Shown: positions 25,910-48,862 of the stretch, in pieces
How positions within the stretch are numbered: the stretch's first letter is position 1
Layout: every line of letters begins with the position of its first letter
Assembly: GCA_031400935.1 (NCBI GenBank)
Contig: JANNQV010000018.1
Location: 1 to 64,000 of the forward strand
Length of the DNA: 64,000 nt
From: Armatimonadota bacterium
Lineage (GTDB): Bacteria > Armatimonadota > Fimbriimonadia > Fimbriimonadales > Fimbriimonadaceae
Direction: 5' to 3'
Translations under genes and position numbers: made by a program
The notes under the pieces: generated by a model
Told to the model about the DNA's origin: nothing
Databases searched by the model: none
What the model saw: only the letters and a program-made list of their open reading frames with translations

Positions 25910-28603
25910 CTATTTATCCAGCGTAACCTTTACCCTCTCCCGAATCGCCGCCTGCGCCGCAGAAAGCCTTGCAATTGGAACTCGAAACGGGGAGCAGCTA
26001 ACATAGTCCAGCCCTAACTCATGACAGAAGTAAATGGATTCTGGATCTCCGCCGTGCTCGCCACAAATTCCGCATTTCAGCCCTTCTCTAGCGGCTCGCC
26101 CTTCGGTGACAGCCATTCTCATCAATCGGCCTACACCCGTGAAGTCAATCGTTTCAAACGGGTTGATCGAAAGGATTTTTTGTTCCACGTAACGCTGAAG
26201 GAACTTGCCTTCGGCATCGTCTCTGCTAAAACCAAAAGTGGTTTGAGTAAGATCATTAGTCCCAAAGCTAAAGAACTGCGCGTATTCGGCGATTTCGCCT
26301 GCAGTCAGCGCAGCGCGTGGCAACTCAATCATGGTTCCAAACATGTACGGAATCTCGGCGCCTTGCTCTTGAACAATTTTCTTCGCTTCGCTTTCAAGCT
26401 GATTTTGAACAATTCGAAGCTCATTTACAGTTGAAACCAGCGGAATCATGATTTCGGGATAAACACGTTTTCCTTGTTTGATCAACTTTGCTGCTGCTTG
26501 AAGTATCGCTCTAGTCTGCATGATGACTAGGCCAGGCATAATGATAGAAAGGCGAACTCCACGCAAACCAAGCATCGGATTTGATTCCTTCATCGCCTCG
26601 ACAGCATGCATCAATTTGACCTTTTCTTCTAGTACATCCGCGAGTTCATCATGGCCATGCACTATCCTTGTCTTTAGTTCGGTCGTTTCGCGAAGAAGAG
26701 TTTCGTAATTTGGAAGGAACTCGTGAAGAGGAGGATCAATTAGCCGAATCGTCACTGGCTTTCCTTCCATCGCCTCGAAAATCCCTTCAAAATCTGCTTG
26801 TTGCACGATTTGAAGTTTATCGAGGCAGGTTTTGCGCACTTCTTCGTCTTTTGTCAGAATCATCTGCTGCACGATGGGAAGCCTTTCGGCTTCAAAAAAC
26901 ATGTGCTCTGTTCGGCAAAGTCCGATCCCTTCAGCCCCAAATTCAATGGCTTGAATCGCATCCCGGGGGTTATCGGCGTTTGCCCTTACTTTCATCGTTC
27001 GGTACTGATCTGCCCATGACATTAAGGTTGCGAAATAGCCGCTAACTTCTGCATCAATTAAGGGAAGGGCACCCAGATAAACCGCTCCGGTGCTACCATC
27101 GAGCGTAACCCAGTCGCCACGATTGACCACGTTTGCGCCTACGGTCATTCGCTCATCTTCGGTGTTCACAGTAATCGAGTCGGCACCAGCAACGCATGGA
27201 ATTCCGAACCCTCTTGCAACGACCGCCGCATGGCTGGTCTTGCCGCCCCGTGCGGTCAGAACGCCTTGCGCCGCGAGCATTCCGTGCACGTCATCGGGAT
27301 TCGTTTCGTCCCGGATCAATACAACTCGCTTTCCTGCGCCGCCATGAACCCCCATTTCGGCAGCCGTGTCGGCATCAAAGACAGCTTTGCCAACCGCAGC
27401 GCCAGGCGATGCCGCAAGTCCAATAGCTATGGGTTTTGAGCTTGCAATAGCCTCGGGGTCAATTCGAGGATGCAAAAGCTGATCGAGGTGGGAAGCTGAA
27501 ATTCGTAGAAGAGCCTCTTCCTTCGTAATCAAACCTTCTTCCACCATTTCTACAGCAAGACGAACAGCTGCTGGGCCAGTGCGCTTTCCAGATCGGCATT
27601 GAAGCATATATAGCTTGCCATGCTCAATCGTGAATTCAAGGTCTTGCATGTCTTTGTAATGCTTTTCGAGCAAATTGCAAAGGCGAATGAACTCGTTAAA
27701 TACTTCAGGATTCTGCTTTTCAAGTTCGCTGATTGGGACTGGAGTTCGGACTCCAGCAACTACGTCTTCGCCTTGGGCGTTCATCAAGTATTCGCCATAC
27801 GTGTGTCGCTCGCCAGTGCTTGGATCGCGAGTAAATGCAACGCCGGTACCGCAATCGTCGCCGGCGTTTCCATAAACCATAGACTGAACGGTAACTGCAG
27901 TGCCGATTTCTTCTGGAATTTTCTCAGTTCGGCGGTAGACAATGGCGCGGTCGTTATGCCAACTCTTGAATACGGCTTCGATGCTGAGCGCAAGCTGCTC
28001 CCAAACATCAGTTGGAAATTCTCGACCCGCATGATCCGAAACGTATTGAAGGAAGAGAGCGCATATCTCTTTAAGGTTCTCTGCTGAAAGGTCTAGGTCT
28101 TCTTTCGCGCCAACCCGGTTCTTAAATGCCTGAAAAATCTCTTGATCAAAATGGTGCTTACTGAGCCCAAAAGCCACGTCGGAAAACATCATGATGAATC
28201 TGCGATAGCTGTCATAAACAAAGCGGGCATCGCCCGTTTCTTGGATCAAAGCTTCGACGGTCATTGGGTTCAAACCTAGGTTGAGAACAGTGTCCATCAT
28301 GCCTGGCATGGAGAACTTCGCGCCAGATCGAACAGATACCAATAGCGGTTTTTCCGCCCCACCAAACGTTCGTCCCATTTGGTTTTCAAGGTCTGCAATT
28401 GCGGCTCTTGTTTCAGAAATTAGACCGTCAGGCAACTTTGCGCCTTGAGCGTAGTATTCATTGCAGGTTGCTGTGGTAATGGTGAAACCAGGGGGAACAG
28501 GGAGCCCGATATTGGTCATTTCGCAGAGGTTTGCACCCTTGCCTCCGAGAAGATCGCGCATGGAAGCATTGCCATCGCGAAACAGAAAGACACGTTGAGT
28601 CAT
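25910..28603 (-). CDS. ppdK: Pyruvate, phosphate dikinase
   Basis: LLGGKGANL, SMPGMMDT, TSHAAVVAR, GLCRTEHMF, SFGTNDL and GICGEHGG motifs. Confidence 0.97.
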   Translation of the reverse strand: MTQRVFLFRDGNASMRDLLGGKGANLCEMTNIGLPVPPGFTITTATCNEYYAQGAKLPDGLISETRAAIADLENQMGRTFGGAEKPLLVSVRSGAKFSMPGMMDTVLNLGLNPMTVEALIQETGDARFVYDSYRRFIMMFSDVAFGLSKHHFDQEIFQAFKNRVGAKEDLDLSAENLKEICALFLQYVSDHAGREFPTDVWEQLALSIEAVFKSWHNDRAIVYRRTEKIPEEIGTAVTVQSMVYGNAGDDCGTGVAFTRDPSTGERHTYGEYLMNAQGEDVVAGVRTPVPISELEKQNPEVFNEFIRLCNLLEKHYKDMQDLEFTIEHGKLYMLQCRSGKRTGPAAVRLAVEMVEEGLITKEEALLRISASHLDQLLHPRIDPEAIASSKPIAIGLAASPGAAVGKAVFDADTAAEMGVHGGAGKRVVLIRDETNPDDVHGMLAAQGVLTARGGKTSHAAVVARGFGIPCVAGADSITVNTEDERMTVGANVVNRGDWVTLDGSTGAVYLGALPLIDAEVSGYFATLMSWADQYRTMKVRANADNPRDAIQAIEFGAEGIGLCRTEHMFFEAERLPIVQQMILTKDEEVRKTCLDKLQIVQQADFEGIFEAMEGKPVTIRLIDPPLHEFLPNYETLLRETTELKTRIVHGHDELADVLEEKVKLMHAVEAMKESNPMLGLRGVRLSIIMPGLVIMQTRAILQAAAKLIKQGKRVYPEIMIPLVSTVNELRIVQNQLESEAKKIVQEQGAEIPYMFGTMIELPRAALTAGEIAEYAQFFSFGTNDLTQTTFGFSRDDAEGKFLQRYVEQKILSINPFETIDFTGVGRLMRMAVTEGRAAREGLKCGICGEHGGDPESIYFCHELGLDYVSCSPFRVPIARLSAAQAAIRERVKVTLDK

Positions 28604-28734
28604 AGAGTTTCAATTCGTCCGGCGAGTTGAAATTGTTGATGCGGCGGCAGTGGCGCAAGAAATCTCGTCGGGAGGTTCCAGTTTACCGCAGAGCGCGAAT
28701 TGCAGGCGAGTTGTCGGTTGCCCGATCAAATTCG

Positions 28735-28757
28735 GACCGAGCCGTGCAAGCCCGGTC
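28735..28757 (-). terminator. Hairpin just downstream of the tRNA 3' end (probable native tRNA terminator)
   Basis: Minus strand GACCGGGC-TTGCACG-GCTCGGTC: an 8-bp stem 17 nt past the CCA, with a weak U-tract. Confidence 0.45.
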
Positions 28758-28774
28758 AAACCCCAACAAAATTC

Positions 28775-28822
28775 TGGTGGGCGATGAGGGGCTCGAACCC
28801 CCGACATCCTCGGTGTAAACGA
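28775..28822 (-). pseudogene. 3' half of tRNA-Val(TAC); att-type fragment
   Basis: Minus strand TCG-TTTACAC-CGAGG-ATGTC-GGGGG-TTCGAGC-CCCTC-ATCGCCC-ACCA. The anticodon loop, T-arm, acceptor 3' strand and CCA are present. There is no D-arm or GGGCGAT 5' strand upstream. Confidence 0.85.
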
Positions 28823-29140
28823 AATGGCATGGCACTGGGTTAGGGTTCGAAATGGTGGTTCTGAACCTGAAACGATTGCGGATTCGCCCGCAAGATGTTC
28901 TGGTGTGCGCTGATGTCTGCCTAAAGTTTATGCAAAGACTAACTCAGGAGGATTAATAGAGAAAGCAAGCGTCGAGTTCGAGAAGTGGCACTCGTCCTTG
29001 GGTCATTATGAACCCGAATTGGCACCATTGAGGTCGAATCAGTCTCCGATCAAAGCACTTTGATACGATCGTCACTTTCTGCAAATATACGCAGATGCCG
29101 ACACTTTTTGCGACTTGCACTTCTTAAACTTCTCGCAATT

Positions 29141-29154
29141 ATGATCCGTGTCAT
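29141..29154. promoter_or_regulatory. Crp/Fnr-type operator, one mismatch (ATGAT-ccgt-GTCAT)
   Basis: Intergenic; a -10-like TAATCT starts 24 nt after the motif end; upstream of the porin gene. Confidence 0.65.
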
Positions 29155-29200
29155 AGGCGAATCGCGCCCGACCTTCCTAATCTATTTTAGGAAAGTGATC

Positions 29201-30358
29201 ATGTTCATAGTGCCAATTCAATTTCACCAATTTGACTTTACGCCATATCTCGATGTTCGATTTCGTGCAGAAAGACGGCTCAATCGCGATTTCTTTTCGC
29301 CAACTAACGACGATCGGACCGACATCTTCTCGCGATTTCGACCAGGCGTGCAGTGGAAATCCGGCAAAAACTGGTCAGGCGACCTGCAATACCAGTTCGC
29401 TGACGACAAGATTTACAAAACGGCTTCGACGACAAGCGACGAGTTCAGCGATCTCAATCTGGCGTTTGCCAAATACAAAGACAAGAAGATCGAGGTGACC
29501 TTTGGCCGACAAAAGATCAATATTGGCTCGGAGCGATTGATCGGGACCCTAGAGTGGGCGACAACCGCTCGATCCTTTGATGGAGTTCGTATCAAATCAG
29601 GACTGTGGGACGCGTATGCGTTCAAGGTTGGAGTTGCGCGACCAATGCCCGGGCGCACGCGAATTGTTGGTGCCTCTTTTTCAGGAAAAGCGGGCCAATC
29701 TTCGCTCATTTTTAAGAATGATGATCGCTCTTCTATTGAAATTTGGACGCTTTCCCATTTTTGGCAGAAGCAATGCGGAAAGTGGAGCTTCGATGCTGAG
29801 GGAGCAGTTCAAACAGGTAACGTGGCAGGGCGCGACCTCGAAGCTTGGGCTGACCATTATTCTGCAACTTACAGTTTTTCGAAAGCAACCCGCGGCTATA
29901 TTGAACTCAATGCAGCCAGCGGCGGCGGAAATTCAACTACCTCGCGCACTTTCGACAACCTTCTTCCAACGAATCACAAGTTTTATGGCTCGATGGACAT
30001 GCAATCTTGGCGCAACATGGAAGAAATCGCCTTAGGATTCGAGCATCAATTCAATCCAAAGTGGACTGCAAAGACGAGCATCCGCAGTTTTGCACTTCGG
30101 GATGCAAGGGATGCTTGGTACGGCGCAGGCGGGGCTCCAAACGTCGGCGGAGCAGGCACTTTTGTAGACCCTACCGGTGCATCTGGCCGTGATATCGGAC
30201 GGGAATTCAACCTCGAATTCGGCTGCAAGCAAAGTTCAACAATGAACATTTCGGCGGGGTTCGGAGCCTTCTTACCAGGTGATTTCATCAAGATTCGGAA
30301 TGGCGGTCAAGCGGACACGCAGTATTGGGGATACGTTATGGCTCAAGTGAGGTTTTGA
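29201..30358 (+). CDS. Alginate-export-family outer-membrane beta-barrel porin
   Basis: FGRQKINIGSERLIG, RSFDG and FDNLLPTNHKFYGSMD motifs; C-terminal Phe. The start is uncertain and no clear signal peptide is visible. Confidence 0.8.
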   Translation: MFIVPIQFHQFDFTPYLDVRFRAERRLNRDFFSPTNDDRTDIFSRFRPGVQWKSGKNWSGDLQYQFADDKIYKTASTTSDEFSDLNLAFAKYKDKKIEVTFGRQKINIGSERLIGTLEWATTARSFDGVRIKSGLWDAYAFKVGVARPMPGRTRIVGASFSGKAGQSSLIFKNDDRSSIEIWTLSHFWQKQCGKWSFDAEGAVQTGNVAGRDLEAWADHYSATYSFSKATRGYIELNAASGGGNSTTSRTFDNLLPTNHKFYGSMDMQSWRNMEEIALGFEHQFNPKWTAKTSIRSFALRDARDAWYGAGGAPNVGGAGTFVDPTGASGRDIGREFNLEFGCKQSSTMNISAGFGAFLPGDFIKIRNGGQADTQYWGYVMAQVRF

Positions 30359-30362
30359 GAAG

Positions 30363-31397
30363 ATGGTTGACTCTGAAATGAAATTGCCCGTCTCCGACAA
30401 TCCGGCCATCGAAATGGTTCACATAACAGAAGCCGAGTCGGAGCTAAGAGCGAAATTTGAGCAGGCTCTAGCTCCAGAACTGCTCTCAACGAATTCAGGC
30501 ACCATAGATATCCATAAAATTCCCAGCAAACAGAGGGTCCACACCCTTTGTATCACGGTTCGATCGAAAGTTGGGAAAGCAGAAATGGATGCCTTGCCTA
30601 ATCTCAAGTTAGTTGCGACAGGTTCCGTTGGAATAGACCATGTTGATTTTGCGGAAACGCGACGCAGAGGTATTACTGTCTGCAATGTGCCTGAGTACGG
30701 CTCTGCGGTTGCCGAATTCAATATCGCTCTGATGCTTATGCTGTCCCGCAGATTGCATTTGGCTTATTTGCAAACTTCCCAGCGTGACTTTTCTTTGAAC
30801 GGCCTGCTCGGGCGAAATCTCGAAGGTAGAGTTCTCGGAGTTGTTGGCACAGGAAATATCGGCATGAACGTTGCCAGATTGGCAAATGCACTTGGCATGA
30901 CGGTAATTGCAGTAGATCCGAACCCGCGACCGCATGATTTTCTGCACTTTGTAAAAATGCCGGAACTACTGGCGGCATCAGATATCATCGCGATTTGCTG
31001 CCCGCTGACCAAAGAGACAACCCATCTTATCGGCCCTGAAGAGTTTGAAAAAATGAAGCGAGGAGTTATCATCGTAAATACTTCGCGCGGAGCAGTGCTT
31101 GATACGCACGCTTTGGTTTGGGCGCTCGATGAAGGCATTGTCGAAGGTGCCGCGCTTGATGTTTTGGAGGGCGAAGTTCTTCTTCCGCCGAAGGCTCTGA
31201 TGTCAACTTTGGCTGGCGAACCGACATTTGATCAGGCTCAAACCATCGCCGAGGACCTCACGCTGATGCGTCATCCAAAGGTCATCGTAACCCCTCACAT
31301 GGCGTATTACACCCAGGATTCGCTGGACCGAATTCGGCAGGTCACCGTTGAAAATGTTAAGTCATTTCTTGCTGGAGACCCGCAAAACGTTTGTTGA
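30363..31397 (+). CDS. D-isomer-specific 2-hydroxyacid dehydrogenase (D-lactate dehydrogenase-like)
   Basis: GVVGTGNIG, NTSRGAV, ALDVLEGE and TPHMAY motifs. Confidence 0.88.
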   Translation: MVDSEMKLPVSDNPAIEMVHITEAESELRAKFEQALAPELLSTNSGTIDIHKIPSKQRVHTLCITVRSKVGKAEMDALPNLKLVATGSVGIDHVDFAETRRRGITVCNVPEYGSAVAEFNIALMLMLSRRLHLAYLQTSQRDFSLNGLLGRNLEGRVLGVVGTGNIGMNVARLANALGMTVIAVDPNPRPHDFLHFVKMPELLAASDIIAICCPLTKETTHLIGPEEFEKMKRGVIIVNTSRGAVLDTHALVWALDEGIVEGAALDVLEGEVLLPPKALMSTLAGEPTFDQAQTIAEDLTLMRHPKVIVTPHMAYYTQDSLDRIRQVTVENVKSFLAGDPQNVC

Positions 31398-31430
31398 TTC
31401 AACTAAAAAGCTGGATTTCTTGGGCCCAGC

Positions 31431-31444
31431 ATGACCCCGGTCAT
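31431..31444. promoter_or_regulatory. Crp/Fnr-type operator ATGAC-cccg-GTCAT
   Basis: Perfect palindrome centred 42.5 nt before the narK ATG at 31480. Confidence 0.75.
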
Positions 31445-31479
31445 AGTGACAACCACTCCATGGTTGTCATCATTAGAGT

Positions 31480-32988
31480 ATGAGCGAAAGAGCAACCTCA
31501 AATCGCGTTCTCTTTATGAACACTCTCGCCTTCACAGTCTGCTTTGCAGTTTGGACCATGTACGGCGTTTTGATCACTTTTTTGGTTGACAATCGCTACC
31601 TGATCGCCGACAAAGCGCAATTGGGGTGGCTCATTGGAATTCCGATTCTGACGGGCTCAATTGTCCGTCTCCCCGTCGGATTGATGACTGACCGGTATGG
31701 AGGAAAGCCTGTCTATCTTTCGGTAATGGTGTTCGCTGCGCTTTCGCTCTTCGTGACGAGCCAAGTTTCTACGTTTGCCGGATTTATTGTTGGGGGCCTG
31801 CTCTTCGGAGTAAGCGGCTCTGCATTTGCCGTTGGAATTGCCTACTCTTCTATGTTCTTTCCCAAAGAAAGGCAAGGTACAGCCCTAGGAATTTTTGGTA
31901 TGGGAAATGCCGGAGCGGCAGTAACAACACTAGCTGCACCGACCATGCTGAAAAACTTCACGAACGGCGGCGAGAACATAGAAGGCTGGCGAATGCTTCC
32001 GATCGTTTACGGAATCGCTCTCCTCGTGATGACGGCACTCTTCGCGATATTCACAGTCAATCGAAAAGTAGATGAAGCTGGGCAAAAGACGATCGGACAG
32101 ATGCTAACTCCTCTCGGCGATGTGCGAGTTTGGCGATTTGGCCTTTACTATTTCTTGGTGTTCGGCGCTTTTGTGGCGCTTGCACAATGGCTGGTGCCCT
32201 ACTACCTAAATGTCTATGGAATGAGCCTGGCCATGGCTGGTTTGCTGGCTTCTGTATTTTCGCTGCCGTCAGGAGTGATTCGTGCATTGGGCGGCTGGGC
32301 GAGCGACAAGTTTGGAGCACGGTCCACGATGTATTGGGTGCTTTCGTTTTGCGCAATATGCTTCTTCTTGCTCATCGCCCCGCGAATGGACATCCGCTCG
32401 CCGGGCGAAGGCGTAATGGCCGATCGGGCTGGCAAAGTGGCCTCGGTAGAACAGAATCAAGTGGTCGTTGATTCCTCTTTAGTGAACCAAGAGACGATAA
32501 AGGTCGCCGACCTCAAGACTTACAAGCTGAAAACCGAAGTCGCACTCGACCCCAATTTGCTGGAAGAAGGCGTTCTCGTTTGGCCGACGTTCCGTTCTTG
32601 GCAAGAGCCCGCCGTCAAGCCGGGGCAAGTAGTCAAGAAAAAAGAACTTCTTGCTAAAGGCGTGACTCACGTGTATTTTCAAGCCAACGTCTGGGTGTTC
32701 ACCGGGCTAGTTTTTGTTGCTGGAATCATGATGGGAATCGGCAAAGCGGCTGTTTACAAACACATTCCCGAATACTTCCCGAAAGACGTGGGAGTTGTCG
32801 GCGGAATTGTTGGCGTTATTGGTGGACTAGGCGGCTTCTTCTGTCCGATCCTGTTCGGATATCTGCTGAAGCTCACCGGCCTCTGGACGTCGTGCTGGCT
32901 GTTCCTTGGACTGCTGAGTATCGGGTGCTTAATCTGGATGCACTTAGTGATTTTGAGGATGACAAAAGACATGACACCCGAGAAGTGA
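31480..32988 (+). CDS. narK: NarK-family nitrate/nitrite MFS transporter with a ~100-aa soluble insertion
   Basis: GSIVRLPVG, GTALGIFGMGNAG, YFLVFGAFV, RALGGWASD and GIGKAAVYK motifs. Confidence 0.9.
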   Translation: MSERATSNRVLFMNTLAFTVCFAVWTMYGVLITFLVDNRYLIADKAQLGWLIGIPILTGSIVRLPVGLMTDRYGGKPVYLSVMVFAALSLFVTSQVSTFAGFIVGGLLFGVSGSAFAVGIAYSSMFFPKERQGTALGIFGMGNAGAAVTTLAAPTMLKNFTNGGENIEGWRMLPIVYGIALLVMTALFAIFTVNRKVDEAGQKTIGQMLTPLGDVRVWRFGLYYFLVFGAFVALAQWLVPYYLNVYGMSLAMAGLLASVFSLPSGVIRALGGWASDKFGARSTMYWVLSFCAICFFLLIAPRMDIRSPGEGVMADRAGKVASVEQNQVVVDSSLVNQETIKVADLKTYKLKTEVALDPNLLEEGVLVWPTFRSWQEPAVKPGQVVKKKELLAKGVTHVYFQANVWVFTGLVFVAGIMMGIGKAAVYKHIPEYFPKDVGVVGGIVGVIGGLGGFFCPILFGYLLKLTGLWTSCWLFLGLLSIGCLIWMHLVILRMTKDMTPEK

Positions 32989-33046
32989 ACCTACGACACG
33001 AAGCTTTGATGATCGTGCCGTATGACAGGGTAGTCTGAACGCAACA

Positions 33047-34081
33047 ATGGGAAAACTTGGGAGAGCGCAATCAATCTCCACATGTGCCGCGCTTGGCGTA
33101 GCTTTCCTAATTATGGCTGGCATCTATTTTGGTTCTGGCGCCCTGACTCGATTTGATACGCCATTGGCGGCTTATGCCGCAGCCACAGTTTTCGCCGGAT
33201 TTGCAATTACTTACCGGTACACGATGTGGATTCAACGTCCGCCTACTTGGCACTATTTCAAAGCAGGTTGGAGGCTCTTTCTTCGGCCCAAGCATCTATT
33301 CCCAAATATGCTCAAACTGGCAGGGCTACTTTGGAACCAGATCGTTGCTCAAAGATTTATTGAACGAAGGAGCAGGCAACGATGGGCAGCGCACATGTGT
33401 TTAGCTTGGGGATGCCTGATTGCCTTTGCCATAACTTTTCCGCTGAGCTGGGGTTGGGTGCAATTTGGCATAGCCGAAAACGGGCGCGACTACGTGGTTG
33501 AGTTCATGGGGATTCCGCAAATCGCATTCCCGCCAGATGGTGTGCTGGCGTTTTTCATGTTCAATGGACTTAACATTAGTGCGGTAATGGTTCTCACCGG
33601 TGTGGCACTTGCAATGCACAGAAGGCTTTTCGATCGTGGATCTCAGGCCGTTCAAACTCTTGCGAATGACCTCATTCCCTTGTTTCTGCTTTTCGCGGTG
33701 TCTGTCACGGGACTAATGATAACGGCAAGTTACAAGCTGATGGGAGGAGAGAACTATTCGTTTCTTTCGCTATTGCACGCATTCACGGTTGTGATTTTGC
33801 TACTTTGGCTTCCCTTTGGCAAGCTTTTCCACGTCATCCAGCGGCCAGCTCAATTGGGTGTTGCCTACTATAAGGAAGAAGGAGCAAGGACAGAGCAAGC
33901 GCACTGCGTACGAACCAGGGAAGGGTATATGAGCAAGATGCATCACGACGACCTTGTGCTTGTTATGCGTCAGTTAGGAATAGACTTTGGGGAGCATCAA
34001 GACCTATCGCCAGCAGCAAAGCGGAACCTAATCGCTTTGAACCAAGCTACACTTATCGAAGGCCAGCCTTTTGTGGGCTGA
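33047..34081 (+). CDS. NarI-like heme b membrane subunit, probably serving the adjacent Nas-like module
   Basis: Multi-TM protein with WAAH and H-x17-H (LLH...PFGKLFH), the same spacing as NarI H187/H205. Confidence 0.7.
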   Translation: MGKLGRAQSISTCAALGVAFLIMAGIYFGSGALTRFDTPLAAYAAATVFAGFAITYRYTMWIQRPPTWHYFKAGWRLFLRPKHLFPNMLKLAGLLWNQIVAQRFIERRSRQRWAAHMCLAWGCLIAFAITFPLSWGWVQFGIAENGRDYVVEFMGIPQIAFPPDGVLAFFMFNGLNISAVMVLTGVALAMHRRLFDRGSQAVQTLANDLIPLFLLFAVSVTGLMITASYKLMGGENYSFLSLLHAFTVVILLLWLPFGKLFHVIQRPAQLGVAYYKEEGARTEQAHCVRTREGYMSKMHHDDLVLVMRQLGIDFGEHQDLSPAAKRNLIALNQATLIEGQPFVG

Positions 34082-34125
34082 TTGAGGCTCATAACACTAT
34101 CCCTCAGATAAAGTCGCAACGGTAA

Positions 34126-34353
34126 CTACCCCTTGCGCATTCGGGTGATGCCTCGCAGCATCCAAAAATTTACGCCGAACAAGGCGATGCTTGCGATCGC
34201 AGCAGGTAGAGCCATCTCGGAACGGCCCCCGATTAGGCCCTCCAACACGCTCACGAAGAGCCAGAGCTGCAGGAGGATCAACACTAGGTTGAACAGCAAA
34301 AGTGCAACGATGACCGTACCATGCTGCCGTCGAATAGTATCGCTAGGCTTCAT
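34126..34353 (-). CDS. Small two-TM membrane protein (DUF6755-like)
   Basis: 75 aa with LLQLWLF and two hydrophobic helices; ATGA overlap with the Rieske gene. Confidence 0.7.
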   Translation of the reverse strand: MKPSDTIRRQHGTVIVALLLFNLVLILLQLWLFVSVLEGLIGGRSEMALPAAIASIALFGVNFWMLRGITRMRKG

Positions 34354-34850
34354 TCAATAACCTCGCTTCGTTTAACACCGACAGCCCACAATTCGCCGCC
34401 TCGTTCTTCGATCAGAATCTGAGGCAGCGGATGCGGAGGCGGCCCTTGTAGAACTCTGCCATCCTTCACTGAAAAGGCTCCATTGTGGCAAGGACAATAC
34501 AATCTGTCCTTGTCAGGCTGGTAGTCAACTGGACATGAGAGATGCGTGCACCTGCGGGAGAAAGCGGCCACCGTACCATCCGAATGGCGAACCAGAATAC
34601 ATAGGTCGTTTTTTCTGGGATAAGTAAAAGCAAGTGAGGAGCCTGGAATAACATCCTCTAGCCTCGTAATACGCATCGGCTCGAAGTGTCGCTCATCCCG
34701 ACTCATTTGCGACCAAGCCGCAAGGCCAACCGATCCGATTGCGAGGCCGCCACTGGCCAACGTCATGAACTTGAAAAATTCTCTGCGGGAAACGAAGCCG
34801 TCTTCCTCCCAATCAATAGGAAAATCTTCGATTAGCTTCTCGTCCATCAT
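34350..34850 (-). CDS. Tat-signal Rieske [2Fe-2S] protein
   Basis: SRREFFK followed by a TM segment; CTHLSC and CPCHNG; GPPPHPL. Confidence 0.9.
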
Positions 34851-35446
34851 GATAACCTCGAAACTTGCAAAAGATCGCTTTTTCGAATGAGTACTTCCTG
34901 TTTGACTTCCAGTTTTTGAGTTCCGGCAGGCATCATTAGGTTCACCCTTGTCTTGATCGTTCTGACACCGAATACGAACTCGTTGATCGGGGTTCCACTA
35001 CGTTGAGCCGCTATCTCCTCTGGTGTGCAGTACATGAGTGCTTGCGAAGGGCAAACGGTCGCGCACATTGGCTTTTTGCCTACTGATGTGCGGTCGTAAC
35101 ACATATCGCATTTCATCATCTGGTCAATCTCAACGTCGTACTTTGGTACCCCGAATGGGCAAGCGTAAACGCAGTTTGTGCATCCGATGCAACGAGGCTT
35201 CAGCGACGTCTGGACGACACCGTCGGGCGTACGCTTTATTGCGTCGGCTGGGCAGACCATCGCGCATGCAGGTTCTTCACAATGCATGCAGATTACCGGC
35301 GTGGTTTGAACGCTTTCACCCCGCTGGATGGTCTCGAGATGAATCATCGAGACTCCGGCATGCGTGTCGCATTCTGCACAGGCGGCCACACAGGCGTTGC
35401 AACCAATACACCTGCTCGGGTCAATGTAAAACTGCCTCTCGCTCAA
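34847..35446 (-). CDS. 4Fe-4S dicluster electron-transfer subunit (DmsB/FdhB-like)
   Basis: [28 protein letters not shown] and KCDMC motifs. Confidence 0.92.
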
Positions 35447-35793
35447 GCGCTTGTACCTCCAACAGGTGGGCGCACCATGTTTGGCATCAACCCCCTTCGA
35501 CGCTTATGGATGTTAACATAAGTTAACTCTCCCTGCGATGCATGAATGCTGCGATGGCAGCCCTTTGGAAGCACGACAATTGACCCAACACAAAGGGTAG
35601 TTGACTGGCCGTCAACTGTGATTTCGCCCTCTCCGCCAATAACAACCATGATGACGTCCACTTCATCGTTCTGATGATTTCCTACACCCGAACCATCGGT
35701 CCATCGCACCAATGTGGCATTCAAGTCTTCCGTTTCGGTACCCCAAAGAGCACCGTCTGCGCCATCCATGCTTAACGCTTCAACTGCGATCAT
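35443..35793 (-). CDS. Cupin-domain protein
   Basis: HQNDEVD...GEGEITVDG...LPKGCHRS; overlaps both neighbouring genes by 4 bp. Confidence 0.8.
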
Positions 35794-37982
35794 GCAATGG
35801 CCTCCTGATCAGCAGATGAACTGATTCGGACAACCGACTTTTTGTATTCAGGAATCTTGCTCAGCGGGTCGAGTGCGCGGTTCGTGAGGTTGTTCGCAGA
35901 CCGTTTGCCGGGCCAATGGTAAGGGATGAAGATGGTGTCGGGGCGTATCGTAGAAACCACTTTTGCGCGAAGTACAACCTCGCCGCGGCGACTCTCAACC
36001 TTCATCCAACTGCCGTCTTCAATACCGTAATCGGCCGCAAGCGTCGGATGAATTTCAACATACGGCTCAGGGCACATGTCAACCAAACCGCCGATACGAC
36101 GTGTTTGTGTACCGCTAAGATACTGCGAAACGACGCGGCCAGTTGTGAGAATTATGGGATATTCTTCGTCTGGCTCTTCTGCGCTGAGGCGATAAGCCGT
36201 GGGGTGAAAGTGCGCTTTGCCGTCCGGGGTATGAAACTTCATTGTCTCGAACAGTCGCGGAGTGCCAGGGTGGCCGATCTCGGGGCAAGGCCAAAATACG
36301 CCCATCTCGTCCTCGATCCTTTGATAGGTAATCCCGAAATAGTCTGCAGTTCCGCCCTTGCTCGCAATTCGCAACTCGTTGAAAATGTCCTCGCTGGTCT
36401 TAAAGTGATCGAAATACTTGCCCCTGCCAAGCCGCCGGGCGAGTTCGAGAATGATCTCTGTGTCGGCTTTTGCTTCTCCTGGTGGATCAACTGCCTTTCG
36501 AATCCGAATCACACGGCCCTCTGCACTTGTGCTTGTGCCTTCCTCTTCTTCGTGCAATGAGCCAGCGAGCACGATATCTGCGTGGTGGGCGGTCTCATTT
36601 AGAAAGAAATCTATTGCAGAATAGTGCTCGAGTCTGCCAAGTGCGTCCCTCGTGAAGTTAGAATCCGGCAACGAAACCAGTGGGTTGAAGCAAATCGAAA
36701 CGAGTGCTTTGATCGTGCCCTCATGGATCATGTTCATGATCTCTTGAGCGGTGTGTCCCTTTCCGGGCATCTCGCTCTCTTCGATTCCCCAAACAGAGGC
36801 TATGTACGCACGATGCTCCGGATTCTCGATGTCGCGATTACCCGGAAGCTGGTCGCATTTGTGGCCATGTTCTCGACCGCCCTGTCCATTCCCTTGGCCG
36901 GTAATCGTGCCGTATCCGCAACCGGGCTTCCCGAGTCTTCCGGTAGCGAGGACGAGGTTGATGCAGCCGAGCACATTGTCCACACCTTTGGTATGGTGCT
37001 CAATCCCTCGCGCATGTAACAGAAAGCTCGTCTTGGCTTCGCCCCACATTCGGCCCGCCTTCTGGATGTCCTCGACTCTGACGCCGCTAATCCTGGAGGC
37101 CTCCTCCAAGGATTGAGCAAGCGCGCTGGCCCTCGTCTCTTCCCAACCGCTCGTGTGCTCTTGGATGAATGCCTCATTCACAAACCCATCTTCGATCAGG
37201 ACACGCAATATCCCAGTTAACAGAGCACTGTCTGTCCCTGGCCTTACCGGCAAATGCAGATCGCATGTCCGCGCTAGGGGTGTAACGCGAGGATCAATCA
37301 TGATCAGCTTTGCACCACGATCCCTCGCCCGCCAGATATAGTCGGTCGTGATCGGAGAGCACTCCGCTACATTTGTTCCGGCGCAAAGAATTACATCCGC
37401 AAGGACAATGTCGTCCCAAGAATTCGCCGCGCGATCTATGCCAAACGCCTTTTTGTTGCCAGTCCCAGCGCTCACCATGCAAAGTCGCCCGTTGTAGTCT
37501 AATTCTTGTGTTTGCAGAGCAACGCGGGCGAACTTGCCCATGAGGTAGCTCTTTTCGTTCGTCAAGGAGACGCCTGAAAGCACTGCGACGGCATTCTTGC
37601 CGTATTTTTCCTGAACACGCTGAATCTCTCGAACTGTAGTGGAGAAAGCTTCCTCCCATGAAATCGCTTCAAAACCCTTTCCTTCAACCCTTTTCAAAGG
37701 AGAGGTCAGGCGATCTGGGTGGTTGCCTTGCATGTATCGCTTCACGCCCTTTGGGCAAAGCTTGCCTCTGTTGAACGGAAACTCCTCCCAAGGCTCAAAG
37801 CCGATGACCTTGTTCTCTCTAACTTTTAGTTGGATCCCGCATTGTTGGCCGCAAAAACAGCAGTGGGTTTTAACTAGTTTGTCCGGTTCGCCGCGTCCTT
37901 TCCATCCGCCCGGTGGAGTGTCATTTAGGTGAGGGCCAAAGGAGTCTATGAGTTTTTCGACGGCTACCGGTGGTCTCGCCAT
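35790..37982 (-). CDS. Mo-bisPGD oxidoreductase, Nas/Nap/Fdh clade (probable nitrate reductase catalytic subunit)
   Basis: CCFCGQQC...[14 protein letters not shown] (Cys ligand, compare Nas/Nap RLCM); [10 protein letters not shown]; no Tat signal. Confidence 0.85.
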
Positions 37983-38162
37983 AATCTTTTCCAGAGTATA
38001 CGCCAAAGTGAGTTTTCACCAAAAGGCGATCTGAATTGTTCGAGCGATGTTGGGTATTGGTCTGAATGCACCTACTGAGTTTTTTGATCCCAACAGACAT
38101 GACACCGGCAGAGAGACCGGCAATGTGCAATGGCCGACATCAACAATGCTCGCTCCGCCCCC

Positions 38163-39557
38163 TCACCCCAAAAGAACATCAATCACGTCATCAGCGGAAT
38201 ACGATTCTGCCCCAGGCTTCAAATACCGAGACACATTAACCAAATCATCTCCGGCAGTAATCAGCGGAGGTTCATGAATGCCATTTCGAACCTGCCCGAG
38301 ACCGATTGTTGCAGTCAAACCGTTGCAAACGCACTTCCTGCCCGCAGTCGCTGCCAAATCGCCCCCTTTGCTAATGTAGTCCTCGATTGGTTCTGCTGGA
38401 CAACGGTAGCCGATTCCCCCATCGGGCTTTTGGTACAAAGTGCGTAGATAGCCAAGATCGCAAATCCGCTCTCTGTTTTCGGTAACACTCGGATCAGAAA
38501 CTGATCCCGGAAAATCAACAACTTTGAATGGAAATCCTGTGGGGGACGCACTTGGGTCTGTAAACACATTTGCCACTCCAGCAAGACTTCGCCGAATCAC
38601 CTCCGCCTTTATTTGGGGACAAAGACCTGACTCATTGCAAAAAGCGAATCCTGTGCCGACCTGAATCCCCTCCGCGCCAACTGCAAGAGCTTCCTCGAGC
38701 CGTTCATGAGTTCCGTAGGAGCCTGCAATCCAAAACGGAAGCCCCAATTCGCGAAACTTTTCAAATTCGGGCATGTCCCGTTCGCCATAAAGTGGTTCGC
38801 CTTGCTCGTTAAGTTGAAGTGCACCACGAGGCGGAGCATTGTGACCTCCAGCAGTAAAACCCTCGACGACAAAGCCATCGGCAGGCGGATCGCACTTTCT
38901 CGCCAGAATTTGAGCCAACGACGCCGACGAAACAATGGCGAAAAACTTGGGTCGCTTCAATTTCTGGCCCCAGAACACAGACGGATCAAAGCGCGTTGCG
39001 ACCGGGTCGCCGCCCGCAACATCAACCTTGATTTCGGCGGGTTCACCATCCGCAAATTTGTCGAGAATTCCCGGAATCGCCCTCGGAATTCCTGCGCCCA
39101 TCAGCACCACATCCACGTCTGCAAGCATCGCGCCGTAAAGTGAGGGCAAAGTTCCAAGCTGGATTTTCTCGAGCAAATTTATCCCGACAATCCCTTTATG
39201 CCCTTGCTTGGCGAGCCAAGTTTCAACGAAATTTGCAACAATTGTCAGTTCTAAAAACGCTTTGCCAGGATTAATTGTCGGGACGGGTTTTGACTTAAAA
39301 GGTGCGTCTTCAGCTTTTCCGCCGGGTACAAAATAGCGTTCCCAGACCCGCATCGCCATTGCTTTGACTGGGAAGTGGGCAAGAGCTTCGGCCATGTGAC
39401 CGCCGATGTCGCCTAATTGAAGCCTTCGCGCAAAAACCGTATCAAGCGCAGTGCCGCTAATCACCCCCACTTGACCTCTCAAAGAGACGGCTCGAGCTAA
39501 GGGCCATGAGGAAACGGCGACGCCCATGCCGCCTTGAATGATTTGTGGGTAAGTCAT
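38163..39557 (-). CDS. Nitronate monooxygenase-family FMN oxidoreductase
   Basis: IIQGGMG, MGAGIP, EGFTAGGH and QVGTGF motifs; C-terminal cysteines. Confidence 0.85.
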   Translation of the reverse strand: MTYPQIIQGGMGVAVSSWPLARAVSLRGQVGVISGTALDTVFARRLQLGDIGGHMAEALAHFPVKAMAMRVWERYFVPGGKAEDAPFKSKPVPTINPGKAFLELTIVANFVETWLAKQGHKGIVGINLLEKIQLGTLPSLYGAMLADVDVVLMGAGIPRAIPGILDKFADGEPAEIKVDVAGGDPVATRFDPSVFWGQKLKRPKFFAIVSSASLAQILARKCDPPADGFVVEGFTAGGHNAPPRGALQLNEQGEPLYGERDMPEFEKFRELGLPFWIAGSYGTHERLEEALAVGAEGIQVGTGFAFCNESGLCPQIKAEVIRRSLAGVANVFTDPSASPTGFPFKVVDFPGSVSDPSVTENRERICDLGYLRTLYQKPDGGIGYRCPAEPIEDYISKGGDLAATAGRKCVCNGLTATIGLGQVRNGIHEPPLITAGDDLVNVSRYLKPGAESYSADDVIDVLLG

Positions 39558-39677
39558 GTATTATTCCTTTGCTGGCAAAAGCGGTAAATGTGGTGCTACA
39601 GAGGTTCGTTAGCGCAAAACATTTCCTTGCCTCTTCAGCCTTTGATACAGTGTATAACTCCAGCAGTATTTCTTCCT

Positions 39678-39691
39678 ATGACAGCCGTCAT
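39678..39691. promoter_or_regulatory. Crp/Fnr-type operator ATGAC-agcc-GTCAT
   Basis: Perfect palindrome in a divergent intergenic region; a -10-like GAGAAT lies 23 nt after it. Confidence 0.75.
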
Positions 39692-39739
39692 AGTGCACGA
39701 GAATACTTTCGGCGAGAATGTAATTGGAGTCCATCCGAT

Positions 39740-41080
39740 ATGTCAACTGCAAACAACAAAGACACGATTGAAAACTGGCAACCAAACGAACCCGAATTTT
39801 GGGAATCTACGGCAAAACCGATCGCATGGAGGACTCTTTGGGTCACTACATTCTGCCTTTTGTTGAGTTTTGCGACCTGGTTCATGGTCAGTGCAATCGT
39901 TGTAAAGCTCACTGGAATTGGGTTCAAATTTGACAAATCGCAGCTATTTTGGCTCAACGCAATGCCTGGTCTGGCGGCTGGAACGTTGAGAATAGTTCAC
40001 ACATTTCTGATCCCGATTTACGGAACCCGAAAAGTCGTGGCAATCTCCACGCTTTTGCTCGCAATTCCGGCGATCGGATGGGGAATGGCTGTTTCTAACC
40101 CGGAAACCAGCTACAGCACGTTTATGATTCTCGCCTTCTTAGCGGGATTGGGCGGTGGTAATTTTAGCTCATTCATGCCCAGCACTTCATTGTTCTTTCC
40201 AAAGAAACTGCAAGGCACAGCGCTTGGGATTCAGGCTGGAATCGGCAACTTTGGCGTCTCCGTTGCCCAGTTCATGATCCCCGTTGTAATTGGCATGTCA
40301 ATGGTTGGCTCCAGCCAGCACTTCGTTGACAAGAAGGGCGACAAGATCGTCAAAGAAGCCGACATCTTCCTTCAGAACGCCGCATTCATATGGGTTCCCT
40401 TTATTATATTGGGAGCGTTGGCGGCATGGTTCTGGCTCAAAAGCGTTCCGGTCCAAGCAAATTTCAAAGAGCAACTTGATATCTTCAAGGAAAAGCACAC
40501 TTGGCTGATGACAAGCCTCTATATCGCAACATTTGGCTCATTCAGCGGATTTGCAGCCGTCTTCCCATTGCTGATAAAGGAAACTTACGGCAAGTTTCCA
40601 GACGGGCCAGATGCGCTGAAATTTGCCTTTCTTGGGCCACTCGTAGGGGCATTGGTTCGTGTTCTCGCAGGGCCCTTTGCCGACAAGTTCGGCGGGGCAA
40701 GAGTGACAACAGTGAGTTTGATCGGCATGTTCGGATTTGCGATTGCTGTCACGCAATTTACGCACCCGACCGACCTTTCGACCTGGGGCGGATTCTTGTG
40801 GTGCATGTTAGGGCTCTTCTTCTTTAGCGGAATCGGTAACGCGAGCACCTTCAAGCAAATGCCAATGATCTTCCCTCCGCGCCAAGCAGGTGGCGTAATT
40901 GGTTGGACGGCCGCCATTGCAGCATACGGGCCGTTTGTGTTCTCCGTGTGCTTCGGAGCGATCATCGCTCGAACAGGCAATGGAACGGCGTTCTTCTACT
41001 GCGCGGCAGTATTTTATGCAATCAACTTTTTCATTAACTATTGGTACTACGACCGAAAGAATGCGGAGAAGCCGTGCTAA
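39740..41080 (+). CDS. narK: NarK2-type nitrate/nitrite transporter
   Basis: WQPNEPEFW, AGLGGGNFSS, GIGNFGVS, FGSFSGF, GIGNASTF and AIAAYG motifs; GGAG RBS before ATG 39740. Confidence 0.92.
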   Translation: MSTANNKDTIENWQPNEPEFWESTAKPIAWRTLWVTTFCLLLSFATWFMVSAIVVKLTGIGFKFDKSQLFWLNAMPGLAAGTLRIVHTFLIPIYGTRKVVAISTLLLAIPAIGWGMAVSNPETSYSTFMILAFLAGLGGGNFSSFMPSTSLFFPKKLQGTALGIQAGIGNFGVSVAQFMIPVVIGMSMVGSSQHFVDKKGDKIVKEADIFLQNAAFIWVPFIILGALAAWFWLKSVPVQANFKEQLDIFKEKHTWLMTSLYIATFGSFSGFAAVFPLLIKETYGKFPDGPDALKFAFLGPLVGALVRVLAGPFADKFGGARVTTVSLIGMFGFAIAVTQFTHPTDLSTWGGFLWCMLGLFFFSGIGNASTFKQMPMIFPPRQAGGVIGWTAAIAAYGPFVFSVCFGAIIARTGNGTAFFYCAAVFYAINFFINYWYYDRKNAEKPC

Positions 41081-42716: not shown

Positions 42717-43901
42717 CTAATGCTCTGAAGTAGCAATCCCTTCCGGCGCAATGTGAACCGGAGTTTCCAAAATCCCTTTCATCGTCATCAGGCCGATGAG
42801 GAGAATCACAAAAACCCCTGCAACGATCACGAAACCTCGTTTCGCAGGGTGCCTGGATTCAGACTTGTCAATCCAAGGCAAAGCAAACATCCCTATAGTT
42901 ATGGCTCCAGGAATGATGAGCGTTGCCACCATCTCCCATCCAGCAGGCATGATCTTTAGAAGTTCAAAAAGACCGAGGAAGTACCATTCCGGCCTTGGCG
43001 CAAATTCGGTTCCCGTTGGATCAGCCCTGCCCTCTAGGCCAGCAGGAAATGCATTCGCGAGAGCAAATATGATAGCAAGTCCCGCCACGACGACGACGGC
43101 GTCCTTGAAGAGCTGCCCAGGAAAGAACGGCTGCGGCTTGCCCTTTTGCGGAATGACTGGACCTGCGATGTGGTGACGACGAACTAGGTAAAGATGAATT
43201 CCTACAAATGCCATGAGAGACGCGGGCAATAGCATGACGTGCGCCGCATAAAAGCGAGTCAGAGTCAATGCGCCGACCTCGTTTCCTCCACGAATTAGCA
43301 CCATCATCATGTCGCCAACGACGGGAATCGTTCCTGCGATACGAGTTCCAACAACAGTCGCCCAATACGCCTTTTGATCCCATGGAAGCAGGTAGCCAGT
43401 GAATGAAAAGGCGAGCATGACTTGGAAGATCAGAACGCCAAAAACCCAAGTCAGTTCTCGCGGCTTTTTGTACGATCCCCAGAAGAAAACTCGAAGCGTG
43501 TGCATGACCATTGCCACGACAATCGCCGTCGAGCCCCAAATATGGAGTCCTCGCACTAACGAGCCAGCCGTCACGCCCTCTGTGATGTGTTTGACAGAAT
43601 CGTATGCCGATTGCGGGCTCGGGCTGTAGTACATCGCCAGGGCAACGCCGGTTGTAAATTGGAAAACCAATAGCGTCAAGAGCAAGTTGCCCAAAGTCTG
43701 CCACCAACCGACACCAGGAGGCATGGGCTCATCCAGATTCTTTCGAACAAATCCCCACCAGCCAATGCGCAGTTCAAGCCAGTCTTTGAGCCCAGGACGC
43801 TCACGGACCATCTGCTGCTCTGGCTGCTCGGGGCCGATTGTGACGATGGGACGTTCGATCGTCTCGCTTTTGGGTGTGGAAGTTGGTGGTTCCTTTATCA
43901 T
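42717..43901 (-). CDS. Cytochrome b subunit of a Rieske/cytochrome b complex (unsplit)
   Basis: RGLH...MHTLRVF, GYLLPWDQ, RFYAAH-x14-H and PEWY motifs. Confidence 0.93.
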   Translation of the reverse strand: MIKEPPTSTPKSETIERPIVTIGPEQPEQQMVRERPGLKDWLELRIGWWGFVRKNLDEPMPPGVGWWQTLGNLLLTLLVFQFTTGVALAMYYSPSPQSAYDSVKHITEGVTAGSLVRGLHIWGSTAIVVAMVMHTLRVFFWGSYKKPRELTWVFGVLIFQVMLAFSFTGYLLPWDQKAYWATVVGTRIAGTIPVVGDMMMVLIRGGNEVGALTLTRFYAAHVMLLPASLMAFVGIHLYLVRRHHIAGPVIPQKGKPQPFFPGQLFKDAVVVVAGLAIIFALANAFPAGLEGRADPTGTEFAPRPEWYFLGLFELLKIMPAGWEMVATLIIPGAITIGMFALPWIDKSESRHPAKRGFVIVAGVFVILLIGLMTMKGILETPVHIAPEGIATSEH

Positions 43902-43904
43902 GGC

Positions 43905-44468
43905 TTATACCTTTCGGCTCACAAAAATCTTGCCGTTTTCGATTTTGACGGGGTGCTCGACAAGTCCAGAAGGCGGCGGTCCAGAAACCACTTTGCCGAC
44001 TTCGTCAAAGACCCCTCCGTGGCACGGGCAGAAATATCGCTTCTGATCGTCTTGAAAATTGACTTTGCATCCCAGGTGGGTGCAAGCAGGATCAAAGCAC
44101 TTGACATCAGATTCAGTTCGGTGCAAAAAAACTGTGTATTTTCGGTCTACGGCTTGGTAGCCATCTACGATGTTCATCACATACGAAACTTCCCTCGTTT
44201 GGCCGAGTGCAAGGTCAGCGTCGTCCAAAATAGGCATCCATCGTTCGGTTAGCTTTGTTGAAATTGGAGCTGCCGCGAAGCGTACAACGGGAATTGCGAG
44301 AGCTAGTCCGACCGCGATGTTTATTCCAGTGACCAGCCATCGGAGAGCGGTTCTGCGGCTTACCGATTCGACATGCTCAGGCTCAAGATTGGTGCCGCAC
44401 GAACAAGCAGGAGGGCATCTCTTGCTTGGATCGGGTCCATCGGATTTAAATACATTCAGTTCTTTCAT
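43905..44468 (-). CDS. Rieske iron-sulfur subunit of the Rieske/cytochrome b complex
   Basis: SRRTAL followed by a TM segment; CTHLGC; CPCHGGVF; SGPPP. Confidence 0.92.
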   Translation of the reverse strand: MKELNVFKSDGPDPSKRCPPACSCGTNLEPEHVESVSRRTALRWLVTGINIAVGLALAIPVVRFAAAPISTKLTERWMPILDDADLALGQTREVSYVMNIVDGYQAVDRKYTVFLHRTESDVKCFDPACTHLGCKVNFQDDQKRYFCPCHGGVFDEVGKVVSGPPPSGLVEHPVKIENGKIFVSRKV

Positions 44469-44480
44469 AGCAGTGATCTG

Positions 44481-45611
44481 TTAGGGGTAATAGCGAATCG
44501 TGATTTCCTTTGCCGGTTCGTCGTAGACTCGAGCAACGACGTCCTCAGCGATTCGAAGCGACTTGTGATGGCGTCCTGGGCTTGGTTCTCGAAGGAATCC
44601 AATTTCAACTCCGGAAGCTGTTACCGCTTCGGTCACTTTCGTTAGAGACACCATGATCGGGACAATCCATGCGTGTTGGAACCGTGTGAACGGTGCCGAA
44701 ATCATGAGCGCACACACAAAAGCTAGGTGGTAGATGTAAATCGGCATTACCCAGCCAAATGCGGTTGTCCGATTGATTACGAGCGTGAGAATGCCGCTCA
44801 ATACGGTTTGGAAGAGTAGGAATACAAACAGATAATCGCGGCCAAGAGTTAGCCCGTTGTCAATGTACTCGTCGGTTTTGTACCGCTTCATGACGTAAGC
44901 GACGCCGATCAAAACCATGACTCCGGCAAAAATCGGAAGGATCTTCAGGGGGTTACTCAACGCCAAATCGGCTCGAGTCGGATTGAAAATCTGCATCAAA
45001 ATGTCAGCAGTAGCAAGGCCGATCATTCCATAGAGCATCAGACCGTGCATCGCCCATAGGTGCTTGCTCTTTCTCCAAAGGGATCCGACGAAGAGGCCGT
45101 CGAAAATGAGCGACTTCAAGGCAACACCGAGCGCTTTACCGTATCCAAACCTTCGTAGGGCTGGTTTCATATATTTGAATCCAGCCAGCTTCACCCAATA
45201 AGCGATTCCTCGAATCACGAAAATGAAACTGAACAAAGAAACTGCGAGGAAGATTTTGGCTACGTTTTTTGTAGTCAACATTGAGCCAACTTTAAAGGCA
45301 AGCGGGATCTGCTCTTCATTCCACGGCCTAGCTTTTACGTCATCGTAAATGGTCTTAGCATCCTCGTTTGACAGTTGTTCGACAGGCGTGCCCGGCATCA
45401 TGCCCTTTCCGTTTCGAACTGTGTTGAGGAACTCGATTTGTTCAAGTTTGGTCTGTGCTAGGGGAGGTCCTAAGCCGCCCATTGCAGTCATTCCATGGCA
45501 GCCCATGCATGACGAGCTTTCAAAGGCATCTTTCTTTTTGAGGTCAGTCTGGGAACCTGAAATGGTAACAATTAGAATCAGTAATCCGAGAATTGAAATC
45601 AGTTTTCTCAT
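44481..45611 (-). CDS. Fusion of a monoheme cytochrome c and a NarI-like membrane heme b domain
   Basis: Signal peptide; CMGCH with GP and a distal MP; then about 5 TM segments with WAMH and H-x17-H (YH...PFTRFQH). Confidence 0.8.
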   Translation of the reverse strand: MRKLISILGLLILIVTISGSQTDLKKKDAFESSSCMGCHGMTAMGGLGPPLAQTKLEQIEFLNTVRNGKGMMPGTPVEQLSNEDAKTIYDDVKARPWNEEQIPLAFKVGSMLTTKNVAKIFLAVSLFSFIFVIRGIAYWVKLAGFKYMKPALRRFGYGKALGVALKSLIFDGLFVGSLWRKSKHLWAMHGLMLYGMIGLATADILMQIFNPTRADLALSNPLKILPIFAGVMVLIGVAYVMKRYKTDEYIDNGLTLGRDYLFVFLLFQTVLSGILTLVINRTTAFGWVMPIYIYHLAFVCALMISAPFTRFQHAWIVPIMVSLTKVTEAVTASGVEIGFLREPSPGRHHKSLRIAEDVVARVYDEPAKEITIRYYP

Positions 45612-48738: not shown

Positions 48739-48806
48739 ATCGTGTACTCCTCAAGAAGCGAACAGCTTCAATGAGGATATTTTTGTATGTTTCTGGCTTT
48801 CTGACC

Positions 48807-48820
48807 ATGACCGTCGTCAT
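48807..48820. promoter_or_regulatory. Crp/Fnr-type operator ATGAC-cgtc-GTCAT
   Basis: Perfect palindrome about 70 nt upstream of the type II molybdoenzyme operon. Confidence 0.75.
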
Positions 48821-48862
48821 ATTTGGATTGTTTTGTTCGGGGAACAAGTTAAATGAGTCGGC

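Follow-up and report, generated by a model that had tools for sequence, protein, structure and literature searches.

The window analysed here, bases 1–64000 of contig C18 (139,154 bp) in the genome under study (G000; 2.97 Mb in 67 contigs), carries half of a tRNA gene on its minus strand at 28775–28822. Genome comparison gave 48/48 identity between this fragment and positions 29–76 of tRNA-Val(TAC), starting at the third base of the 5' anticodon-stem strand and ending with CCA, so that its description in the earlier note as the 3' part of this tRNA from the anticodon stem onwards was confirmed. The replacement of the 5' half, also claimed there, was borne out as well, because the 76 nt leading up to the CCA of the fragment do not fold into a cloverleaf, as the intact gene does, and ARAGORN reports no tRNA in the 64-kb window. 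Scanning of 27500–30500 against Rfam yielded no match at E up to 1, which is uninformative for a half tRNA.

The intact tRNA-Val(TAC) gene, predicted to lie in direct orientation to the right of base 64000, was found at C18:66921–66996 on the minus strand and is the sole copy among the 47 tRNAs detected by ARAGORN in G000. Identity between the gene and the fragment continues for 3 bp beyond the CCA, and the direct repeat is therefore 51 bp long, with copies at 28772–28822 and C18:66918–66968 that are 100% identical, located on the same strand and separated by 38,146 bp; the chance expectation for such a match is about 1e-24. The first copy (minus strand; 28775–28822 plus the 3 bp) is referred to below as attR and the second, inside the intact gene and beyond the window, as attL (C18:66918–66996), these assignments being based on repeat identity and, for attL, on the cloverleaf. 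The intact tRNA and its matching 3' fragment thus stand as bounding direct repeats, which extend from the anticodon loop, where crossover would restore the gene, through the CCA.

On the outer side of attR lies ppdK (25910–28603, minus strand; 897 aa, Pfam PPDK_N and PEP-utilizers domains), a host gene outside the island that does follow the fragment, as had been stated; its start at 28603 places the fragment 171 bp upstream on the same strand, and host-side homology to the sister species (G001) stops at 28691. A terminator-like hairpin had been described between the two. A hairpin with a 9-bp stem is present at 28735–28757 (minus strand, from folding), but a terminator behind the fragment was ruled out, since the hairpin has no U-tail, the terminator scan returned no sites, and the folding of the region does not surpass that of shuffled versions (z −1.18). 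Farther to the left of the island, at 972–7710 of the window, there are three tandem peptidase genes of the clostripain, M14 and S8 families.

The inner side of attL is occupied by what is left of an integrase gene. A 67-codon stub, interrupted by a stop at codon 41 and lacking the catalytic domain, was located by tblastn at C18:66648–66848 (minus strand); it begins 72 bp past the CCA end of the intact tRNA-Val, on the same strand, and shows 69% identity over these 67 codons to a full 319-aa integrase at C23:56003–56959. The integrase expected beyond base 64000 is thus there in position, directly behind the tRNA gene, but not as a working gene: the four PF00589 matches in G000 fall on C12, C15, C23 and C58 and none on C18. 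The search for an intact integrase inside the island, by tblastn with six and then two further integrase queries, returned only the stub. The full-length C23 integrase, which has a PHROGs integrase match and scores below the XerC and XerD cut-offs, is located directly behind tRNA-Gly(GCC) in the same arrangement as at the Val stub, and tRNA, spacer and gene start of the Val and Gly(GCC) elements are 78% identical at the nucleotide level over 292 bp; the latter element has a 66-bp copy of the 3' part of its tRNA on C45. This locus, with its intact Xer-like integrase of 319 aa, spans C23:55855–56962 (L071:15856–16963). The C23 enzyme is a candidate for acting on the Val island in trans.

Integrases of this type are associated with tRNA genes beyond G000. 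The closest full-length relatives in GTDB genomes, at loci L096 (60%) and L097 (58%), each lie behind a tRNA-Val gene; ARAGORN detected a tRNA at 6/10 integrase-relative loci in these genomes, five of the six being at most 500 bp upstream of the match, and at eight of the 12 loci in a second set. None of 36 candidate stretches in viral contigs carried a relative of the integrase.

Between the two repeat copies lie two blocks of cargo genes. The respiratory block (29140–57826, 28.7 kb) was delimited by its 84–89% nucleotide identity to G001 contigs. According to Pfam and NCBIfam, its part within 29060–41080 encodes a porin of the alginate-export family, a 2-hydroxyacid dehydrogenase, two NarK-like MFS transporters, a NarI-like subunit, Rieske and 4Fe-4S proteins, an NMO-family protein and, at 35790–38006, a NasC-like molybdoenzyme (838.8 bits with the NasC model, cut-off 1100). 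Within 42717–49704, on the minus strand, the same profile collections identify cytochrome b, Rieske, cytochrome c/NarI-like and 4Fe-4S proteins and a Crp/Fnr regulator, and this cytochrome b/Rieske/cytochrome c set is linked to an 812-aa DMSO-reductase type II alpha subunit (46300–48738, minus strand; TIGR03479, 475.6 bits against a cut-off of 984.75). The latter subunit recurs in other genera at 80–89% identity. No NarGHI or NapAB system was recognized, as the NarG model reached only 257.2 bits in the region of the DMSO-reductase type II subunit (cut-off 1084) and the NapA model 282 (cut-off 904); the best fits are NasC and DMSO-reductase type II, both below their curated cut-offs. A third group, within 50909–57518 on the minus strand, includes a CcmF/NrfE-like heme lyase and a 7-CXXCH cytochrome (Pfam, NCBIfam), followed by a 570-aa outer-membrane protein resembling MtrB/PioB and, beside it, a 9-CXXCH DmsE-like cytochrome (179.7 with the DmsE model, cut-off 192.2). 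The 570-aa protein has no Pfam match and was assigned through an Atlas feature match to the PF11854 cluster (0.95, rank 4). Judged from their sequences, these cytochromes and the 570-aa protein may together form a porin-cytochrome conduit.

The second block, from 57796 to the end of the window at 64000 on the minus strand, encodes by profile an RND efflux permease, a membrane-fusion protein with YtkA and cupredoxin-like domains and a YtkA protein, and the island extends beyond the window through a gene of the TolC family and two small ones up to C18:66573. The permease scores below the CusA/CzcA cut-off. The nitrate and copper cargo proposed earlier is therefore a guess at the level of protein families; with both molybdoenzymes and the permease below the curated cut-offs, "respiratory nitrate reduction" and "copper" are likely labels. 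Among the main island ORFs, Pfam and NCBIfam detected no gene for a relaxase, a coupling protein or type IV secretion, which speaks against an ICE or IME; transposase, replication, transfer and phage genes were likewise absent from the Pfam, NCBIfam and PHROGs scans of the scanned ORFs, and the small ORFs gave no PHROGs match, so that the island does not qualify as a prophage or phage satellite either.

In tRNA integration, the target gene is restored at one end of the incoming DNA and its own 3' fragment is displaced to the other. Classification of tRNA-integrated islands by the crossover position of their integrases, including the anticodon loop, reportedly goes back to Williams in 2002 and is summarised in PMC8371274. 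We read the fragment at 28775–28822 as attR of a 38.1-kb tRNA-integrated genomic island whose integrase was later lost, and assign this reading a probability of about 0.8. A circular element bearing its own copy of the tRNA-Val(TAC) 3' half would have been integrated by a small (~320 aa) Xer-like tyrosine integrase with crossover at the anticodon loop; in this way the tRNA would have become complete again at attL, with the host gene's 3' half remaining at 28775–28822, and the integrase would have been broken afterwards. With its integrase broken, the island would now be unable to excise by means of its own enzyme.

Including the Val-TAC fragment, six tRNA 3' remnants were found in G000, and the feature itself is thus an ordinary one in this genome. 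The others are Thr-TGT (C41:807–852), Arg-TCT (C35:65491–65524), Val-GAC (92%; C20:52795–52845, ~6.6 kb from its tRNA), Trp-CCA (C28:220402–220448, ~13.5 kb from its tRNA) and Gly-GCC (C45:120853–120918); the Val-GAC and Trp remnants probably bound further islands. These five also bear on the idea that the fragment has nothing to do with integration and that selection maintains it, whether as a processed RNA element or as part of the ppdK promoter, for which its mutation-free state and its position so close upstream of ppdK on the same strand would speak. Selection of this kind would leave aside the other remnants, the presence of an integrase stub at the partner copy and the coincidence of the start of the fragment with the cut position of anticodon-loop integrases; moreover, the region upstream of ppdK in G001 is 85–87% identical and lacks the fragment. 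We consider such an origin extremely improbable.

The possibility of an assembly artefact was evaluated using the sequencing runs. In the two probable source runs, the assembly is reproduced without a difference by two unitigs, one reaching the repeat from the ppdK side and the other starting within it and extending across the cargo; the junction between fragment and cargo is also present in a third run. All three runs come from a single study and do not provide evidence independent of the assembly. The Logan unitigs end within the repeat, the cargo-side unitig containing 30 repeat bases, one short of the bridging rule, and contigs alone therefore cannot separate the integrated form from an empty site plus a circle. 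An assembly that fused an empty-site chromosome with a free 38-kb circle via the 51-bp repeat, or that mis-joined contigs, would be compatible with this break. Unitig depth, however, is equal on both sides (26.6 vs 25.1 and 33.9 vs 33.6) and about double in the repeat unitig (61.2), the scanned ORFs include no gene for replication, a functional integrase is lacking, and the fragment is an att site whichever path through the graph is taken. An artefact is accordingly very unlikely in our estimation. Runs X4 to X7 contain 6–11% of the words, and X4 covers 19/30 bins with many differences. Loose ends at 28822 leading into a tRNA 5' half were considered as evidence of excision and rejected, since the attL copy and the DNA of other organisms would produce them anyway.

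The history of the island became clearer from G001, the only other genome of the genus (85% complete, 560 contigs with foreign-looking tails; the parts beyond C474:27763, C467:1–491 and C439:716–1439, with 62.5, 65.4 and 56.2% GC, were set aside as probably chimeric). Nearly all of the cargo is present there at 84–89% nucleotide identity, but at two places. The respiratory block, corresponding to 29140–57826, starts 80 bp behind tRNA-Asn(GTT) on C474 of G001 and ends on C522, and the outer flanks of these two contigs match both sides of the tRNA-Asn locus on C27 of G000, where only a short spacer occupies the place of the block. The efflux block of G001 continues into small genes and a P-type ATPase gene, which was called copA-like by eye from its motifs and has its 3' end upstream of ppdK; the link between the efflux block and ppdK rests on a 59-bp overlap of two contigs. 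This ATPase has no ortholog in G000 (best match 30%). Upstream of ppdK, G001 has neither a tRNA nor a tRNA remnant, which counts against the integration reading inasmuch as it provides no empty site. The integrase behind its tRNA-Val is a different one and has decayed; between tRNA and integrase, on C189 (L036:5051–5181), there are two degenerate tRNA-Asn halves in opposite orientations, which may be left over from an element with tRNA-Asn as its target.

In G000 the two blocks meet at 57821–57826, a 6-bp microhomology in which both parent pieces of G001 have the same hexamer, and the last codons of the RND permease derive from the non-coding flank of the respiratory block. This junction is read as a derived fusion. 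The respiratory block most likely stood behind tRNA-Asn in the ancestor of the genus, and there are about even odds that an older efflux island at the tRNA-Val site captured it from there; capture would have taken place by illegitimate joining, with loss of the P-type ATPase. The composite may have arrived by transfer from a congener or have been put together within this lineage. The earlier suggestion that the cargo is one integrated element consequently holds in that an att-bounded unit exists here and fails for any single ancient element, the blocks being apart in G001.

Composition and divergence were examined next. The island has a GC content of 50.8% vs 48.7%, higher than in all 98 genome windows of 38 kb (those overlapping it included), and only one of these 98 lies further from the genome in tetranucleotide distance, so that its composition is atypical in both respects. 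For the synonymous divergence between G000 and G001, 70 ORF pairs minus 20 shadow-frame rows and one saturated core row were used; the median dS was 0.98 for core genes (16 pairs), 0.74 for the respiratory block (25) and 0.80 for the efflux block (8). The nearness of cargo dS to core dS is what vertical descent would also give and counts against the integration reading. The repeat itself, on the other hand, has accumulated 0/48 mismatches (95% bound 0.06 per site), and a neutral fragment of 48 bp dating from the species split would have had a probability of ~3e-10 of staying unchanged. Set against the divergence of the species, the mutation-free repeat indicates that the duplication is recent, while the cargo belongs to an old gene pool of the genus; we infer that integration came much later than the divergence from the sister species. 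Some of the cargo was at this locus before the young repeat, given that the efflux block neighbours ppdK in G001 as well. Within the island, dS against G001 drops to 0.05–0.6 at 33026–38900 and 50909–53299 (core about 1.0), a sequence pattern that suggests recombination or gene flow between the lineages after they separated.

The empty site was found neither in 40 relatives nor in the single other genus member. The check proposed earlier, for relatives with an intact tRNA-Val beside ppdK, came out negative among the matches listed for 150 and 134 family genomes and compared by eye: in none of the 29 genomes with both on one contig are they adjacent, the nearest pair being 17 kb apart, and the empty site is therefore deduced instead of observed. 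A metagenome scan with the host-side flank gave no matches, and a further scan gave two loci, of which the close one ends before the tRNA.

Part of this evidence would suit another history, in which a small integrase element produced only the tRNA duplicate and the 38 kb never moved as a whole; the efflux block already resident there and a relocated respiratory block would have come to lie between attL and attR through later rearrangements within the chromosome, which would also have removed most of the integrase. The location of the efflux block next to ppdK in G001, a cargo about as diverged as the core genes, two or more illegitimate junctions (one at 57821–57826, one following the integrase stub) and the missing empty site would all be accommodated by such a course of events. 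For attR to end up next to ppdK, however, it would have to move past the efflux block, and this additional swap of blocks must fit into the short time set by the mutation-free repeat, whereas a single integration directly yields the observed order of attL, integrase stub, efflux block, respiratory block, attR and ppdK. We regard stepwise rearrangement as unlikely and retain the single integration of a tRNA-Val island as the preferred reading.

Relatives of the host provide further cases of tRNA-linked modules. The NasC-like gene is patchily distributed, occurring in 82/175 family genomes. Other genera have related modules as well, amid tRNA-Arg(CCT) remnants (G003, G007) or immediately after tRNA-Gln (G106), and in ten further module neighbourhoods a tRNA was present within the examined stretch in three and absent in seven. 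Extra 3' fragments of tRNA-Val(TAC) were detected in 4/40 relatives, making this tRNA an integration target in the family; in one of them (G014), the extra fragment comes with a full 467-aa integrase and a span of 46 kb. In another genome (G018), C5:57460–73570 (L045–L046) contains a tandem array with three extra tRNA-Val 3' fragments, between which YD/RHS-like genes were seen by eye.

The motif TGAACC(T/C) accompanies several of these sites. It occurs within 60 bp behind 5/47 G000 tRNAs (binomial p 1.4e-4), although the 7-mer is common in this genome (657 copies), and also behind the tRNAs at the integrase-relative loci L089, L096, L097 and L098; in inverted orientation it is located just inside both attR sites. 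At the Val site, the copy at 28862–28868 (TGAACCT) points into the island from the 317-bp spacer inside attR (28823–29139), for which sequence searches found no match in G001. The motif may be a binding site of this integrase clade, at the Val site possibly an integrase-binding arm. Arm repeats common to both island ends amount to 7-base matches only, with no 8-mers. Behind tRNA-Asn (C27:137994), tRNA-Lys (C47:4407) and tRNA-Ala (C4:21699) the motif is present and no integrase gene was found; these sites may be scars of the same element family. The non-coding DNA of G000 also contains abundant low-complexity intergenic repeats of GTTGTTGG-like words, enriched more than 10-fold.

By its repeats, the site is a textbook tRNA-integrated island with a close precedent in Azospira. 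Integrases that target tRNA genes are described as crossing over at the anticodon loop (PMC8371274), and sites of this kind are routinely detected by Islander (PMC4048246). As in islands of the Islander type, an intact tRNA, an identical fragment from anticodon stem to CCA and integrase sequence directly inside attL are found; unlike them, the integrase here is a broken stub, no phage, replication or conjugation genes were found, and the empty site was not observed. The perchlorate island of Azospira suillum PS is bounded by a 48-bp tRNA-Pro repeat with a XerD-like recombinase inside the repeats (PMC4623255). The two islands share an anaerobic-respiration cargo, tRNA repeats as bounds, a tRNA that is often targeted in relatives, and cores located at different sites in different hosts (PMC4623255). 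The Azospira island has tRNA-Pro, perchlorate genes, a Rhodocyclaceae host and a documented empty site (PMC4623255), which was not found here, whereas the present one combines tRNA-Val with NasC-like, DMSO-reductase type II, porin-cytochrome and RND cargo in the Armatimonadota. Mobile mtrCAB clusters, one of them between tRNA genes, are also described (PMC8805035), and they resemble the present case in having a multiheme cytochrome and an outer-membrane porin at variable, sometimes tRNA-linked sites (PMC8805035); here, by contrast, no Pfam family matches the porin, and the cytochrome, with its 9 CXXCH motifs, falls below the DmsE cut-off. The string "Armatimonad" has no occurrence in the text of PMC8805035, and the literature searched, mostly outside subscription journals, contained nothing on this island or on tRNA islands in the phylum.

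A broader proposal may be put forward tentatively, and with more doubt than confidence: that an Armatimonadota clade of small Xer-like integrases, marked by the inverted motif just inside both att sites and without any phage or conjugation genes, moves entire modules for anaerobic respiration and electron conduits from one tRNA gene to another within a genus, the island being a recent, stranded product that the tRNA-Gly paralog might excise in trans. The site contributes a dated snapshot of respiratory capacity being reshuffled in a little-studied phylum, with the same block at tRNA-Asn in the sister species and in a tRNA-Val island in G000. The fused block with its precise ends is a defined unit in which the two molybdoenzymes and the porin-cytochrome pair can be tested. 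Since the same or related blocks stand at different tRNAs, the nitrate-type reduction and electron-conduit genes of this family should not be predicted from taxonomy.
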